A stretch of 64,000 bases of DNA from Salinispira sp. (lineage in GTDB: Bacteria; Spirochaetota; Spirochaetia; DSM-27196; Salinispiraceae). Made by a program: the position numbers. How positions within the stretch are numbered: the first letter of the stretch is position 1; every line of letters begins with the position of its first letter. Below are positions 30,001 to 36,000 of this stretch, piece by piece. The DNA lies in assembly GCA_965602015.1 (NCBI GenBank), contig OZ271918.1, forward strand, positions 2,272,001 to 2,336,000. The letters are read 5' to 3'.

Positions 30001-33000
30001 TGTTCTTCGAAACCGCAAACTGAGCTTCAAGGAGAACAAGGAACTTGGGGAAATCCCCGGGAACATTGAAGCACTAGAAACCCGAATCGCCGAACTGCAT
30101 GGAGAGCTGGCGGACCCGGAGCTGTACCGCCGGGAAGGGCCCCGGGCGGCTGAATTAGGGGCCGAACTGGAGGCTGCGGAAGCCCGCCTCGCCGAGTTGT
30201 ACGAGCGGTGGAACGAACTGGAAAGTCTCTCGCCGTAATGCCATGACCATCGGCCAGTCCGGCTCGGTAACGATAGTGATGCTCCTAGCGTCACGCAGAC
30301 GCGGTCGAATACACGGTTCAGTTCACTGTTCGGGCCGCGGTTCAGACCTGCTAAGAAAAGGCAGAAGCACTGTTTGATCCAGATTCAGCGAAGATTTAGC
30401 AGGCCGAGGTACGCATCGGCGCTGATTCCGTAGTAATCGTCAAAGAGCTCATTAAAACGGGGCCTGGTCTTGAGGTCTTCTATATATAAAAGAATCAGCT
30501 CGCCCAGGTCGATTCGCTCAGGTGATACAGCCCAGGCAATGTAATCGACCTCCCCAACGGGAAAACGCACCGCCAACCGATTATCAATCCGCCTCCGGTT
30601 AAATGCCAGCGCCTGGGTGATATCGGTAAGTGCAAAATCCGTCTCGCCCCGGGAAAGCTCAGCTAATCCAAACGACAGCTCGTCATTTGCCGTGATCTCA
30701 AACTCTAGTCCGAACTCATCCATCAGCTGCTCGGCAATTTCCATCTGGGCGCTGGCTTGCGGCAGCATGATTCTGAGTCCGTCCAGGTCTTCCAGATTTT
30801 CCACCGGACTGTCCGCCCGGACGACGACGGCATTTTGGACCGGCAGTACGGGTATCATGGTGAGTATTTGCTCTCTCCAGGGCAAGACCGTCAACGATAC
30901 CAAATACAAATCAGCCTGTGCAAACAGGTCCGGGGTATACGTCATATCGGGGTCGCTAAACAGACTCTGGGGAATCTCCCCGTCCAGTGCCAGGAACTGT
31001 ATGGGATTATCATACACCGTGATTTCCACCGGAATAGATAATTCCTCGGACATCTGCATAAGCATGTCGTAATGCAGGCCCTGAACGCTGCCGTCACCCT
31101 GTGGTTCATAAACAGCGGGAAAGGGGATGGTCGCCACCCGCAGGCCGGAATCCTGAAGCTCCCGCAGCAGCGAACGCTGGGCATCATTTAATCCGCCGAT
31201 AAACGTTTCCTCCTGCGATTCAGAGTCCAGCAACGGGACGACAGCCTCTTGAGGAGCGCGATCCGAGCAGGAAAGAAGAAAAAAGGCCAAAGCCAGCGCG
31301 AGTATAATTGACAATCCGAATCTGTTCTTATCCATGCCACCCCGTGATGCCTGTCTGTCCGGCAATCCTCATCATCTCAAGCATAGGGCATCCGAGGAGA
31401 AAAGTGTCCGCCTATTGAGTAATTCCCAGAAAAGATGCAAAGGACCGCACGAAGTGATTGCAGCCCTATGGTTCAACCGCCGGGAAGGTAAGGGCGAATT
31501 TGGTGAACTGCCGGGACCGGGATTTCACCTCGATCTTCCCGCGATGGGCCCTGGCCAGGTCCTGAATGAGAGAAAGGCCGATTCCCCTACCGGATAGTTC
31601 ATCGGCGCCTTCACTGGTGCTTAGGGACGGGTGAAATAGGTATTGGGCGATTTCTTTGGCATCAAGATTTTCAGCCTGCTCTTCCGTGAGTATTCCCTGA
31701 CTGACAAGCCGCTTGCGCACACCGGCGGCGTTTATTCCCCTACCGTCGTCCTGGAATTCCAGGCGGAACTGCTTGTCATGCCGGGCTGCGCTTATGCTTA
31801 TGAGGCCTGACTCGCTCTTGCCATGACTGCGGCGTTCCAGCCCGTCTTCGATGCCGTGGGCATACGCGTTGCGGATGAACTGAACGAGCATGTCTTTTAC
31901 CGGTTTGCGCATCGGTTCGGGTATTGCCTGATGATCAAAGGCGTCCAAGTTCAGGGTCACGGCTTTGCGGGTCTTGCGGGAGAGGTTTTCATTGAGCTGC
32001 TCCAGACTTTTTGCCAGACTTTCGGAAAAATCCCTGTTTTTATCATCGAAGGTTGTTTTGAAGCTCCGAAGCTTGGCAATGAGAGCCATTGAGCGGTCAA
32101 TCAGCTGTCCCAGCCGGGACAGTTTGACAGTGAGGGAAAGGAAATCGCTGTTTTTCACCTTGGCCTTGCCCTTCATTTCCACCAGAAGGTCTTCCATGCC
32201 ATGGGCCAGGGCGGCGACGGGCTCAAGACCAATTACCGCCGCCTCCCCCTTAATGCCGTGGGTGAGCATTGATATTTGATGAAGCCGGCTCGCCTGATCG
32301 CCCTCATCCTTCAGTATATGATTTATCCGGTCTATATCCCGCTTAACATGAGCCAGAAAATCACCTAAAAGCTCGGGGTCGGTGTGTAGCATCCGGTAGA
32401 ACAGCTCCATCTCCGACTCGGCCTTGTTCTGTTCCTGTACTATTCGCCTTGAAAGAATGGCTTCTTCGGTTACGTCCCCAATTACAGCCATTATTCTCGC
32501 GCCTTCATCATCGGCTATCCTGTGGAATGAGAGCTTCAGATGTTTAGAGGAGATTTTCCCGTTGCCATGGTCGAAATAGCACTCCACCTGGTCAACGGGA
32601 TTCAGATTTGCCAGGGCCTTGGGATCGGTTTTGGGATCGGCCAGAAGTTCGAGATAATCCTCAAGCTCACCGGCGGCGGTATCCGACAGGTGGCTGCCGA
32701 ACAGTTCGGAAAACCGTCTGCCCTGGAGATCGCTTTGCCCGAGAATCTTCTCGCTGGCCAGGGAATAAAACGGGCCGATTCGTCCCTCCTCGTCCAAAAG
32801 CAGGATGCCATCGCTTATATTGCTGAGTATGTTGAGAAATTCGTCCCGGGCGACAGTGGTCTCCTCGAGGCTGTCGAGCACTGCGTTGTAACGACGGGCA
32901 ATTTGTCCGACCTCCGTAAAGGGTTCTACCGGCGCCCTCAGGCTCAGATTTGCCGAGCGGGCCTGCTGTTCCAGAACCTGAAAAAACGCATGGGTCTCGG

Positions 33001-36000
33001 TATTTTCACCGTGCTCCGACACATTTAAACCCTTCTCTTCGTCATCGGGGTCGACCCTCAGAGGGAAGAATTTGTTAATCAGCCAGAGCAGACTGTATGA
33101 CAGGGCAAATGACCAGGCCCCCGCCACCACTATTCCGATGAGCTGAACGGTCATCTGGCGGTCCAAACTGAGCCCCGTGGCCAGCAGTTCCGGATCTCCG
33201 AAAATCGCCACCGCCAGGGTGCCCCACATGCCCGCAAAGAGATGGACCGGTATGGCTCCCACCGCATCATCTATGCGGAGCTTTTCGAGCATCATGGAAC
33301 TCAGAAGCATTACCACTCCGCCGACGGCTCCGATGACTATGGCGTCAATTTCGCCAACCGCGTGGGCGTTGGCGGTCACCGCGACCAGCCCCGCAAGGGC
33401 GCCGTTGAGTATGAGCATAATGTCCGGCTTCTTGTAGATCGGCCAACCGACAATCAACGCGCCGATCATCCCCGCGGAGGCCGAGAGGGCGGTGTTGACC
33501 AGTATATGGGGGACCTGGTCGTTGAGAGCGAGGGTAGAACCGCCGTTAAACCCGAACCAGCCAAACCACAGCAGGATTACACCCAGGACAACCATGGGGA
33601 CATTGCTGCCGGGAATTTTATGCGATTTGCCGTCTTCGTCGAAGCGGTGGCGCCGGGGCCCGAGAATGAGCAAGGCGGCCAGAGCGATCCATCCTCCCAC
33701 CGAGTGGACGACGGTGCTGCCCGCGAAATCGACGAATCCCAGCTGCTCAAGCCATCCTCCGTCTCCCCCCAGCCAGAAGCTCCCCCAACTCCAATGACCA
33801 AAAACAGGGTAGATGATCGCTGCAAGAATTATGGTCGAGAAAATATATGATGAATACTTCATCCGCTCGGCGACGGCTCCGGAGACTATTGTGGCCGCTG
33901 TTGAACAGAACATCGATTGGAACAAGAAGAACACTCCGGTCCACACGGGATTCTCCGTCATCGAGAGCCGAAGAAAGAAGCCGTTGGTGCCCAGAATTCC
34001 TGAATAACTGAGCCCGAACATGATGGCGAAACCGAATAGCCAAAAGGCCAAAAAAGACACGCCGAGATCGGTGAGATTTTTTATCGCAACATTAATGGAA
34101 TTTTTAGAACGGGTCATACCCGATTCCACCATTGCGAATCCCGCCTGCATGATAAAAACCAGAAATGATGAAAACAAGACCCACAAGATGTTGATCGCGC
34201 TCTGATCCATACTGTCTCCTAATACATAAAACCCGAGCCAGCCCGGGTAAAGCTTTTACTGTTATTCCAATCCGATAATCAGGAGCGCGGTGTGACCGCG
34301 CCATTTGAGCGGAACCATAAAGGCCGGGGGATTCTGGGTAAACAGCGAGGCCAGTTCGAGACCCCTTCGCACCGCCGGCACCGAGATAAAATATTCCGAG
34401 CCAAGGTGGCGGCGCATATTTCCGGCAATGGTGTTAATGACCTCACCTGCCATATCTTCGAGATCGTCGCCGGAAATATCCTCGTTGATAATTTCCCGGG
34501 CTACATCGTTCAGAAGGGCCTCTCCGGTACTGAACAGCAGCTGCCCCCGGTGACTCCCGGAGACCGCAATGCCTGCGGAAATACTCAGGTTGCGATCCGT
34601 TGAACTGAGTACGTAGGGCACTCCCATTTCAGCCTCCTCTCCGCTGATGCTTTTGAAATATCCGGTGATGACGTCGATAAACACCTGAATGTCGCGAGCC
34701 TCCATCATGTCACCCCCGCCGGGAGGATTCTATGTATTTCTCCCGCGAGTTCCTCGTTGGAAAAGGGTTTTGACACAAAGCCCCGGGCTCCGAGTTTCAG
34801 CGCCCGTAAACCCGTTGCCCGGTCGTTCAGTGCGCTGATAACCAATACATGTACCTCCGGTCGCAGGTGCATCATGCGCTCCAGGCAAGCCAGACCGTCC
34901 ATTCCCGGCATGGTGATATCCAGGGTAACGAGATCGGGTTCAGTGCGGGCAAACTGTTCTAGGGCTGCGGTCCCGTCCGGAGCGCATGTGATGTGATCTA
35001 TTTCAAGACCGGCAAAAACCGAGCTAATGGCTCTTTGAACTATCCTCGAGTCATCGACAATAAGAACTTTCATGTACATGAACATGCAAAATATGGGCCA
35101 CTTTTGTTTTTTCTTGCATATTTATACTAAGTTATTACCGGCAGTCGAATTAGCAATCTGGTTACCCATTGCCTTGCCGAGGCGAATACTACTTTTCTGT
35201 ATTTTTTTGCAATACAAGCTACGCAGATGTACCAAATAACGAAATAATAGCGTAGTACAGGGGCGGTATGAGGAGGGAGGGAAGAAGGTTAGCCGTCTTG
35301 ATTCGCCGTATCTTTAACAGATCGATACCGATAGCAAAAATCAGAATACCTCCTATATTTGATATCTCACGAATCACCGCCTCGCCGATCCAGGGCTCGA
35401 GATAGGAGGAAAAAAGTGTTAATGAACCCTGATACGCGAGCAATGGCAGAGCGCTAAAGATAACCCCTATTCCCAGGCTCGAGGCGAGAATGACCGAGGT
35501 TATACCATCGAGAATGGATTTTGCGAAGAGTATGCTGTGGTCGGCCTGGAGTCCGCTTTTGATCGAACCGAGAATTGCCATGCTGCCCACGCAATAAATA
35601 AGCGATGCGGTAACGAAGGCTTCGGAAACCTTGCCGTGACCGTCTCCCAGGCGCTTCTGGAGCCGGTCGCCAAGCTTCTCCATCTGCCGTTCAATCCCGA
35701 TAAGTTCGCCGACGACACCCCCGAGGGCCAGACTGATTATAAACAGCAGGGCTTCGCTCTCGGGATCGAGCAGACCCGAAAGGGCGGTGGCCATTCCGAT
35801 GAACAGCACGGCAAGGGCTATGGACTGAAGCAGGGTCTCCTTAAATCGCTCGGGAAGACCGTGTCTTAACAGTACGCCTGTTACTGATCCTAAAATAATA
35901 GCGGCGGCATTGACGTAGGTACCCAGCATACAGCCATGGTAGCGCGTTTGATGAGAAGGGGCAAACGGCCTCCGGAATTATCCGGAGGCCGTGCATTTCA

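Follow-up and report, generated by a model that had tools for sequence, protein, structure and literature searches.

A gene of Salinispira sp. (contig OZ271918.1) encodes an ammonium channel that continues, in one chain, into an Hpt domain and a CheA-type ATPase domain, and it is accompanied by cheX and cheY. This arrangement raises the questions of which class the kinase belongs to, whether the Amt domain serves as a receptor or as a transporter and where the signal would be delivered. Class III histidine kinases (HKIII), as defined by Adebali in 2017, reportedly consist of their own sensor, an Hpt domain and a CheA-type ATPase, with neither a dimerisation domain nor a CheW domain. According to the same work, their operons are said to encode CheX and a single-domain response regulator alongside, and type IV pilus motility, with pilT as its marker, is said to be the function proposed for them in 2017. 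The literature yielded no experimental work on any HKIII system, and no account of an Amt–Hpt–CheA fusion or of its nitrogen control, although the 2017 HKIII survey may list the architecture. The supplements of PMC11152129 gave no text match for CheA, Hpt, Spiroch, chemota or MCP, the architectures drawn in Fig. 7B lying outside such a text search.

Gene organization

Within the window, a stretch of 64 000 nucleotides, three open reading frames were recovered on the minus strand at the positions given by the survey's finding (Table 1); the true start of cheY is probably the ATG at 35073. A Pfam search returned the Amt, PAS-like, Hpt, HATPase_c, CheX and Response_reg domains, PAS_9 falling under the cut-off. 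CheX and CheY are companions of the kinase as described, but they had been placed after it; both lie upstream, and the order cheY-cheX-amt-kinase is kept in 20/20 other genomes with cheY in view. The downstream solute-binding gene probably lies outside the conserved module; when the loci of the other 23 genomes with the fusion were searched by tblastn, none gave a match to it. Neither CheR/CheB nor a soluble chemoreceptor was seen in the operon. The fusion is present in 13 of 301 genomes of the phylum (13 of 99 in the order) and in 24 distinct genomes in all. A whole-protein scan of the genome collection also matched 80 loci through the Amt part, none of them over the kinase part, and these were used solely as tree background.

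Table 1. The amt-kinase locus and its flanks, in window positions
Feature	Position	Strand	Description
cheY	34705..35085	-	126 aa ORF; single-domain CheY-like receiver; Pfam Response_reg; D11, D12, D56, S84, K106
cheX	34262..34708	-	148 aa ORF; CheX phosphatase; Pfam CheX; E89-x-x-N92 motif
amt-kinase, whole gene	31466..34210	-	914 aa; Amt-HAMP-PAS-Hpt-CA
Amt domain, residues 1-404	32999..34210	-	Pfam Ammonium_transp 9-403, 5e-124; pocket, switch and pore residues by alignment
HAMP-like linker, about residues 404-450	32861..33001	-	Sd-Amt1 alignment, HHalign, structure model
PAS domain, residues 466-582	32465..32815	-	PAS_9 1e-4, under cut-off; modelled fold
Hpt domain, residues 613-688	32147..32374	-	Pfam; phospho-accepting His651, codon 32260-32258
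CheA-type ATP-binding domain	31469..31990	-	Pfam HATPase_c 773-911; reaches the C-terminus, no CheW-like domain beyond
Solute-binding/MltF-like lipoprotein gene, downstream	30385..31365	-	same strand as amt-kinase, 100 nt further on
Distal TAC-N6-GTA palindrome	35220..35231		putative activator box; overlaps stop codon of upstream DUF554 gene
Proximal TAC-N6-GTA palindrome	35190..35201		putative activator box; 30 nt from the distal one
Sigma54-type -24/-12 promoter	35085..35100	-	GG-N10-GC

The Hpt-CA kinase module

All of 29/29 full-length fusions keep His651 and the residues of the N, G1 and G2 boxes unchanged, in agreement with the survey. The fusion likewise gave no CheW or H-kinase_dim match at E<=0.1, whereas each of the genome's two true CheAs is matched by both models; HisKA had no Pfam match, Hpt being present instead. 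Among solved structures the ATPase domain matches CheA P4 (4e-23), with TM values of 0.77-0.85 normalised by isolated P4 chains. The distance from the His to the N box is 130 aa, compared with 243 or more in CheA, and in the structure model the last Hpt helix continues as a single 60-residue helix into the ATPase, without a hairpin. A two-copy prediction of Hpt-CA (residues 579-914, ATP, Mg) scored 0.01 and is uninformative on dimerisation.

Judged by its sequence, the Amt-PAS-Hpt-CheA-type fusion matches the HKIII class as reportedly defined. Hpt and a CheA-type HATPase share a single chain behind an N-terminal sensor composed of Amt, HAMP-like and PAS parts, neither a DHp nor a P3 dimerisation domain nor a CheW-like domain is present, and CheX and a single-domain regulator are encoded alongside, here and in the 20/20 other genomes. 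The missing dimerisation domain, which had been listed as a weakness, is not one, being reportedly expected of HKIII. The two other P5-less kinase/CheX/CheY modules that had been reported were found again (C1:2795446-2798615 and C1:1366900-1369394), but the novelty implied for the design is not supported: such kinases form a large family in which the sensors are exchangeable, of a known type that fits HKIII. The family numbers 1031 representatives at E<=1e-30, and about ten sensor types occur among 62 members scanned, including PilJ, Cache, GAF, MASE6, NIT and 7TM.

The one genomic correlate of HKIII that differs is pilT, for which TIGR01420 passes the cut-off in 0/24 fusion genomes (0/13 and 0/11 in the two sets), while 5/14 control genomes pass. 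A citing passage in PMC6501615 states that these kinases always co-occur with a type IV pilus marker; even so, pilus motility as the output of the fusion is highly improbable, given that 13/24 fusion genomes have sub-cut-off pilT matches only and the complete Salinispira genome has none whatsoever, for which this output is largely refuted.

The ATP-binding domain, the Hpt-type phospho-acceptor and the CheY and CheX partners are shared with CheA (T. maritima P4, PDB 1I58), from which the fusion differs in having its membrane sensor built in and no P2, P3 or P5. We give very little credence to a split CheA that joins the normal chemoreceptor array through free CheW. The ATPase is of the CheA type and arrays are present in the genome, but the chain ends 134 aa past the N box, where CheA continues for 263 or more, amt-kinase showed no adjoining cheW gene, and the CheW and dimerisation (H-kinase_dim) domains that the fusion does not have are core to all CheA surveyed in PMC10542144. 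The DHp (HisKA) domain with an H box that would mark a kinase of the Ks-Amt5 type is likewise absent from the fusion.

The linker and the Amt domain

The survey described the linker as PAS-like. The PAS domain stands, and the structure model gives residues 466-582 a PAS-type order of strands and helices at high pLDDT; a preceding HAMP-like stretch had been missed. This stretch is strongly conserved within the fusion family, aligns with the HAMP region of Sd-Amt1 and is modelled as two helices. Pfam HAMP gave no match in the fusion protein and an HMM built from nine HAMP sequences scored the single sequences weakly (E 0.004-2.6), though always at one and the same position; a clear result came only from profile-profile comparison (HHalign against nine Pfam-defined HAMPs, 94.6% over 34 columns). 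The same PAS is found in relatives whose sensors are unrelated, and it may therefore serve in coupling.

The Amt domain contains the N1/N2 pocket residues Q22, E29, N45, D48, T107 and S110, the switch K44/Y122, F25 and N269, and the pore residues W142, S225, F101, F221, H169 and H323. The Trp/Ser filter, Phe gate, twin His, exit Asn and Lys/Tyr switch, an AmR trait, are present in 29/29 fusions. The AmR cluster 2 signature, QX6EX15NX2D[F/T]X54-60TX2[S/T] (as given in PMC11152129), is found with the right spacing, save for L49 at the F/T position, which is a non-ligand in Sd-Amt1 and is Leu in 27/29 fusions. As a regular expression the signature matched 9/35 proteins only, and alignment traced the cause to a Q22R/N45V subclade, fragments and spacing. 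The nearest solved structures are Sd-Amt1 (8e-130, the alignment entering its HAMP) and Ks-Amt5 (1e-102), with Af-Amt1 (7e-62) and AmtB (6e-42) more distant. In a FastTree tree of 126 Amt domains the fusion sequence groups with other fused sensor Amts, inside a 54-row clade (SH 99) in which every row has a tail of at least 223 aa; the GlnK-linked Amt of the same genome falls among unfused Amts. The latter pair had been called canonical amtB-glnK, but this Amt is not AmtB-type and also has N1/N2 receptor residues. For this reason, and because cluster 2 includes proven transporters (in the account of PMC11152129), N1/N2 residues alone do not imply a pure sensor.

It is nevertheless unlikely that the Amt domain functions as a transporter or transceptor, with the kinase responding to transport or to a cytoplasmic PAS ligand in place of N1/N2-bound ammonium. 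Retention of all pore residues in 29/29 fusions, the position of the PAS domain between HAMP and kinase, the predicted co-induction with uptake genes, which would suit a transporter, and the transport activity of plant AMT1 proteins with the signature (described in PMC11152129) are weighed against the presence of the residues that constrict the Sd-Amt1 exit (F25, E29 and N269), the suggested coupling role of the PAS domain, a further Amt match apart from the fusion in 24/24 fusion genomes, and the behaviour of both characterised close relatives, Sd-Amt1 and Ks-Amt5, which are described as binding rather than conducting (PMC11152129; PMC5764959).

Promoter region

A sigma54-type site lies 27-105 nt before cheY in 13/21 operons and was not found in 8/21; the genome background is 0.002 sites per 350 nt, and 4/8 operons of a set gathered after the idea arose have the site. 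A tie between loss of rpoN and loss of the site was considered and rejected: G233 is without both, yet four site-less operons lie in rpoN genomes, and the in-match TAG of G210 also occurs in G352. A TAC-N6-GTA box precedes cheY in 16/21 operons and was not found in 5/21, compared with a mean of 0.85 and a maximum of 4 in shuffles and 0-4/21 for control spacers other than N6; it was first spotted by eye in the same sequences, which come from kindred genomes, and then counted. TGT-N10-ACA, GTA-N8-TAC and GGAA-N-TTCC spacings, the first two of which we take to be NifA-type and NtcA-type, gave no consistent signal in the operon upstream regions, and a scan for sigma70 promoters and terminators stayed at chance level.

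Box pairs spaced 30 nt occur only three times in the 3.87-Mb genome, at the cheY-cheX-amt-kinase operon, at amt-glnK and at the gene of a NifA-like activator, the product of which passes the NifA cut-off. Besides the operon, gltB, glnA, amt-glnK and the activator gene are preceded by TAC-N6-GTA boxes, as is nifH in genome G030. A close activator orthologue (>=49%, full length) is present in 20/24 fusion genomes; the box is found in 16/17 operons from genomes with the orthologue and in 0/4 from genomes without it. The operon looks like part of the nitrogen regulon, with a promoter apparently suited to activation in nitrogen shortage. Against this, sigma54 sites are found in the same genome before two RpoS-like sigma factors and before two Hsp20 genes. 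The TAC-N6-GTA dyad, two boxes upstream of -24/-12 and a GAF-AAA+-HTH activator recall AnfA/NifA-type activation as presented in PMC7294313, where the AnfA box serves Fe-nitrogenase genes of alphaproteobacteria; the spirochaete boxes, in contrast, precede assimilation genes and a sensor operon, without nifD, and would be linked to the activator by co-occurrence.

Output of CheY

Within the genome, the receiver that CheY matches best (36%) is encoded in the cheA-cheW-cheX-cheY operon as its CheY, next to which it groups in a tree of modest support over 124 columns. An E89-x-x-N92-type motif occurs in 13/13 Amt-operon CheX proteins examined, and FliM and FliY carry N-terminal motifs that we take to be of the CheY-docking type. 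FliM is present in 13/13 fusion genomes, which is uninformative because its baseline is 290/301. Output of CheY-P at the flagellar motor is plausible, the grouping of CheY and the FliM and FliY motifs being in its favour.

There is also a substantial, if minority, chance that the same nitrogen-induced sensor kinase directs CheY-P elsewhere than to the motor, be it to a cyclase, to a PP2C-type phosphatase or to nitrogen regulators, as fast feedback at the return of ammonium. The promoter type is common to assimilation genes and not to flagellar genes: the genome's list of 41 sigma54-type sites includes none from around fliM or cheA. The genes that follow the operon often encode further signalling enzymes, directly so in 5/12 first-set genomes (adenylate cyclases 3/12, SpoIIE phosphatases 2/12), but no downstream gene is conserved and the Salinispira genome has neither neighbour. 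A nif cluster adjoins the operon in G171 and lies about 9 kb off in G030, yet nifD occurs in just 4/13 fusion genomes and not in that of Salinispira. For taxis the genome already has 30 MCP matches (family search) and two CheAs, and the operon contains no adaptation enzymes; the CheY-type receiver and its pairing with CheX, on the other hand, speak against this alternative.

Proposed mechanism

Our best full explanation, held at a shade below an even chance, is a nitrogen-regulated, ammonium-sensing HKIII pathway in which CheY-P biases the flagellar motor. Its first four steps together appear quite probable. From promoter conservation, nitrogen shortage would act through the NifA-like GAF/AAA+ activator on the paired TAC-N6-GTA boxes to open the sigma54 promoter, so that cheY-cheX-amt-kinase would be made with amt-glnK and gltB. 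By homology to Sd-Amt1 and Ks-Amt5, the Amt trimer would mainly bind NH4+ in the intramembrane N1/N2 pocket, uptake being left to the separate Amt. The signal would pass through HAMP and PAS to the compact Hpt-CA unit, where His651 may be autophosphorylated without a chemoreceptor, CheW or a P3 hairpin. Gene order and motifs suggest that the phosphate would then move to Asp56 of the co-encoded CheY and be stripped by CheX; as the operon has no CheR/CheB, the output would follow the ammonium level, not its temporal change. In the fifth and weakest step, slightly favoured once the others are granted, CheY-P would bias the flagellar switch and a starved cell would thereby alter its swimming on meeting ammonium. 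The receptor-independent sensor phosphorylating its own CheY that the survey proposed is, to this extent, well supported by anatomy, catalytic residues, gene order and promoter elements.

Comparison with known systems

Sd-Amt1 (Shewanella denitrificans; PDB 8QJ3/8QJ4/8QPF) is the closest solved sequence and shares the N1/N2 pocket, the Lys/Tyr switch, the exit Asn, the HAMP directly after Amt and a host with a separate GlnK-linked Amt, but its output is a diguanylate cyclase, with no PAS, kinase or CheY/CheX in the description given by PMC11152129. Ks-Amt5 ('Ca. Kuenenia stuttgartiensis'; PDB 6EU6) also fuses an Amt receptor with a two-ammonium pocket to a histidine kinase; as described in PMC5764959, this kinase is class I (DHp + CA), without HAMP/PAS or a known response regulator, whereas the fusion has Hpt and a CheA-type CA with regulator and phosphatase encoded alongside. 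The resemblance to HKIII, as the class is reportedly defined, extends over the whole module; the fusion is set apart by an 11-helix, presumably trimeric Amt receptor as its sensor, by the absence of pilT over the cut-off and of a soluble chemoreceptor in the operon, and by promoter elements that tie it to the nitrogen regulon. Both halves, Amt receptor and HKIII-type kinase, belong to described classes, and what looks new is the nitrogen-regulon promoter of the operon.

Biological implications

With an Amt-fused member, the signal, phosphorylation mode and output of HKIII become testable, since the ligand NH4+, the pocket residues, the phospho-His, the cognate CheY and CheX and the inducing condition are predictable and assays already exist for the two characterised ammonium receptors. 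The fusion adds a third kind of output to Amt receptors. For Ks-Amt5 and Sd-Amt1 a mismatch between trimer and dimer has been raised, and a kinase that does without a dimerisation domain is relevant to it. The lack of pilT is an argument against a pilus role shared by all HKIII, and the promoter work outlines a nitrogen regulon that a NifA-like activator would run in a spirochaete whose genome has no nitrogenase. It is possible, although we rate it somewhat below even, that these spirochaetes perform an ammonium taxis or kinesis that is induced by starvation and involves neither array nor adaptation, in which a nitrogen-regulon promoter turns on a trimeric Amt whose Hpt-CA units do without a dimerisation domain and signal through a dedicated CheY directly to the motor. 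If true, this would, to our knowledge, be the first HKIII whose ligand, regulator and output can be predicted, on a receptor-kinase-CheY-motor route that dispenses with chemoreceptors.

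Operon architecture and distribution

The cheY-cheX-amt-kinase operon comprises three genes on the minus strand, located where the survey's finding had placed them. That finding named cheX and cheY as the next two genes after the fusion; the adjacency holds, and both lie upstream of it in transcription order.

Features of the operon, its encoded fusion protein and related sites (window coordinates unless residues, accessions or the host contig, G000:C1, are indicated)
Feature	Position or members	Strand	Basis
Receiver gene (cheY), 126 aa	35085-34705	minus	ORF
CheX gene, 148 aa	34708-34262	minus	ORF, Pfam
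amt-kinase gene, 914 aa	34210-31466	minus	ORF, Pfam
Ammonium_transp	residues 9-403		Pfam
PAS_9 (under cut-off)	residues 466-582		Pfam
Hpt	residues 613-688		Pfam
HATPase_c	residues 773-911		Pfam
Sigma54-type -24/-12 site	35100-35085		consensus search
Two TAC-N6-GTA boxes	35190-35201, 35220-35231		motif search
Sigma54-type sites at RpoS-like / Hsp20 genes	G000:C1:1855752, 2370323, 577876, 3653923		genome scan
Database fusions with Q22R/N45V/Q98H	P0004, P0005, P0008, P0009, P0014-17, P0022, P0023, P0026-29, P0031, P0032		alignment, tree

Orthologues that are full-length over the cytoplasmic part were found in 13 of 301 genomes of the phylum (first set) and 13 of 99 of the order (later set), and pooling both searches gives 24 distinct genomes, the host included. 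An Amt domain in front of the kinase was confirmed in all 24, the gene of one (G233) being divided between two contig ends. The gene order is kept in 20/20 other genomes with cheY in view, three loci whose contig stops within or just before cheX lying outside this count. The four database fusions bearing a taxon label are assigned to Spirochaetales or Spirochaetia. Downstream genes vary: of 12 first-set genomes, three have an adenylate cyclase there and two a SpoIIE phosphatase; the solute-binding lipoprotein gene that follows in the host was not found at the other fusion loci. A 7-bp hairpin with a T-rich run (34231-34248, minus strand) lies within the 51-nt gap between cheX and amt-kinase and could reduce kinase expression relative to CheY and CheX, such sites occurring at chance level. 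One relative (G171; contigs C90, C75, C57 and C31) has six Amt matches, four within open frames of 635-913 aa, and thus several different Amt fusions in one genome.

The cytoplasmic half and class assignment

A Pfam scan of the fusion gave no match to CheW, H-kinase_dim or HisKA, in agreement with the earlier statement that the CheW-like domain is missing. The same scan matched the first two of these domains in both real CheAs of the host. His651 is separated from the N box by 130 residues, and the N box from the chain end by 134; the corresponding distances are 125-189 and 129-153 in the 76 of 149 relatives with both motifs matched, whereas in CheAs they are at least 243 and at least 263. Residues ~404-450 are highly conserved and align with the HAMP region of the ammonium receptor Sd-Amt1; against a profile of nine Pfam-defined HAMPs, HHalign returned 94.6% over 34 columns, covering the second helix only. 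Residues 404-914 were modelled with AlphaFold2 from 132 sequences (pLDDT 91, pTM 0.60). In the model, two linker helices precede a PAS fold; next come an Hpt bundle of four helices, the final one running on as one 60-residue helix, and an ATPase domain. The P3 hairpin is absent. Foldseek matched the ATPase domain to CheA P4 and returned no match to the whole model.

The PAS-Hpt-ATPase module represents a large family, with 1031 representatives at E<=1e-30. Sensors among the first 62 of 149 new relatives, plus 17 matches from another search, include PilJ, Cache, GAF, ROK, MASE6, Reg_prop/Y_Y_Y, CZB, CBS, NIT, 7TM and Amt, the last in four of the 62; neither CheW nor H-kinase_dim was found among these relatives, seven of the proteins being judged on their best five families each. 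CheX adjoins the kinase in 13 of 15 non-Amt loci. The module together with CheX fits the design of class III histidine kinases (HKIII), and by its predicted architecture the fusion is filed in that class. A type IV pilus function was rejected for the fusion because pilT, reported to be a genomic correlate of HKIII, exceeded the cut-off in none of the 24 fusion genomes and gave not even a weak match in the complete host genome. Class III histidine kinases are cited in PMC6501615. As reported previously, the host has three such modules without P5; the other two HKIII-type operons (G000:C1:2795446-2798615 and 1366900-1369394) contain CheX and CheY of different subtypes, and their sensors bear no Pfam name beyond HAMP.

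The Amt half: sensor or transporter

The closest solved sequence is that of Sd-Amt1 (8e-130, residues 3-448), followed by Ks-Amt5 (1e-102), both characterised as ammonium receptors; Af-Amt1 and AmtB rank behind them. The two-ammonium N1/N2 pocket was defined in PMC11152129. The Amt domain of the fusion retains Q22, F25, E29, K44, N45, D48, T107, S110, Y122 and N269, together with the pore set W142, S225, F101, F221, H169 and H323; position 49 is Leu, versus Phe or Thr in the published N1/N2 pattern (PMC11152129).

The survey's finding had described a canonical amtB-glnK pair in the host. In our alignment the GlnK-linked Amt (G000:C1:1990215-1991585) instead bears the whole N1/N2 pocket plus the F25/N269 equivalents. 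Since this protein has the complete signature and cluster 2 of PMC11152129 contains proven transporters, the signature by itself does not tell sensor from transporter. Many unfused Amts share the full set with the GlnK-linked Amt, which may therefore be a transceptor rather than AmtB-type.

As judged by sequence, a tree of 126 Amt domains, Sd-Amt1 and Ks-Amt5 not included, does set sensor apart from transporter. The fusions fall within a 54-row clade (SH 99) in which every tail has at least 223 aa; the GlnK-linked Amt lies outside, where 71/72 rows have tails of at most 44 aa. Ten of the 13 non-HKIII rows of this clade were scanned and comprise two class I or hybrid kinases, five GGDEF or GGDEF/EAL proteins, two SpoIIE proteins and one PAS-only protein. 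A further Amt match is present in 24/24 fusion genomes, one being a fragment at a contig end.

Q22R, N45V and Q98H occur together in 16 of 29 database fusions, which form one clade (SH 100); the combination was found in none of the 24 fusion genomes examined and none of 85 other Amt rows. Arg22 may occupy N2 as a built-in cation, giving a one-ammonium or altered sensor. Another paired N2-site change, Glu22 with Val45, is seen in three unfused Amts (L044, L075, L080). The fused clade also includes Pelagibacteraceae Amts with ~300-aa tails (L005, L007, L008, L009, L028), in which the exit Asn269 is replaced by Leu, Ile or Thr; the two scanned have a SpoIIE phosphatase tail.

Candidate promoter, box and activator

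Taken by itself, the sigma54-type site is no more than chance would give in the window. Such a site lies 27-105 nt before cheY in nine of 13 first-set operons and in 4/8 later-set operons, which were fetched after the first count, against a background of 0.002 per 350 nt of genome; a site 460 nt upstream in G057 was kept out of the count. None was found at the host's two other HKIII operons. Host sites also precede gltB and amt-glnK, as well as two Hsp20 genes and two genes for RpoS-like sigma factors, the latter four being reminiscent of the RpoN-RpoS cascade of Borrelia. Five further host matches are identical intergenic 16-mers before unrelated-looking genes (G000:C1:1738073, 3440729, 3445346, 3452127 and 3456027); they probably belong to a repeat and are not promoters. 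In the host (35073-35100) and G159 (L116:6004-6031), the site implies a transcript start no more than ~1 nt from the cheY ATG, there is no obvious Shine-Dalgarno sequence, and the cheY mRNA is possibly leaderless. For the host the start is predicted at about 35074.

A TAC-N6-GTA palindrome was spotted post hoc while the upstream sequences were read. Of 21 operons, 16 have it no more than 350 nt from cheY, against a mean of 0.85 and a maximum of 4 in dinucleotide shuffles; other TAC/GTA spacer lengths occur in 0-4 of the 21, and 42/692 tiles of the same loci hold a box. The host genome contains seven box pairs 15-44 nt apart, and the three spaced by 30 nt precede the cheY operon, amt-glnK and the gene of a GAF-AAA+-HTH activator; a fourth pair precedes gltB and a single box glnA. 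The activator gene is followed by amt-glnK, and together they occupy G000:C1:1988263-1991963 (L126). The activator passes the NifA cut-off (TIGR01817), and nifD gave no match in the host. TAC-N6-GTA is the published AnfA consensus (PMC7294313). A close activator orthologue is encoded in 20/24 fusion genomes, and the box is found in 16/17 operons from activator-bearing genomes and 0/4 from those without (Fisher p 8e-4, overstated, as two of the four activator-less genomes are congeneric). The palindrome is a putative activator-binding box. The activator adjoins the uptake amt in many relatives and looks like a master nitrogen regulator in these spirochaetes.

Four operons (L142, L144, L146, L147) have no sigma54 site before cheY; they show TTGACA/TTGATA-like hexamers and keep the box, which in L146 overlaps the hexamer spacer. 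In these operons a sigma70 promoter may be the target of the same regulator. nifD is present in four of 13 first-set genomes, and in two of these the nif cluster adjoins the operon or is ~9 kb off: in G171 (L111:5986-15500) the operon is divergent from nifH-nifI1-nifI2-nifD-nifK, and in G030 the distance is ~9 kb (C1:424500-440100). Its congener G094 gave no nifD match.

Proposed mechanism and significance

The receiver keeps D11, D12, D56, S84 and K106, and the host receiver that matches it best, at 36%, is the CheY encoded in the cheA-cheW-cheX-cheY operon; in a tree of 124 columns, the Amt-operon receivers form a group adjoining that of the chemotaxis-operon CheY (SH 91-92). E-x-x-N is kept in CheX of 13/13 Amt operons. 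FliM is present in 13/13 fusion genomes and also in 290/301 phylum genomes, and is therefore uninformative for motor output.

Nitrogen shortage would most likely induce the operon; the Amt trimer would then bind ammonium in N1/N2, the change would be relayed via HAMP and PAS to the Hpt-ATPase unit, phosphate would pass from His651 to Asp56 of CheY, and CheX would reset the system. Homology and genomic context make these steps, taken jointly, quite probable. The weak step is the target of CheY-P, which could be the motor or a non-motor partner; given the preceding steps, we lean slightly towards the motor. Ammonium raises the activity of Sd-Amt1 (PMC11152129), and PMC5764959 describes for Ks-Amt5 a rise at low concentrations and a drop at high. 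Because the operon has no methylation enzymes, motor output would follow the ammonium level, unlike classical gradient sensing.

Amt receptors that act through a kinase or a cyclase are already known, HKIII is a named class, and the kinase design itself has been described. The Amt-HKIII pairing was not found in the literature searched, which covered few subscription papers, and the supplements of the HKIII paper may list it; it is absent from the text of the PMC11152129 supplements, figure 7B lying outside that text. The sigma54 site and boxes suggest a regulatory layer beyond the survey's finding, and the fusion stands above an ordinary HKIII member because its ligand, its regulator and the condition that induces it can be predicted.
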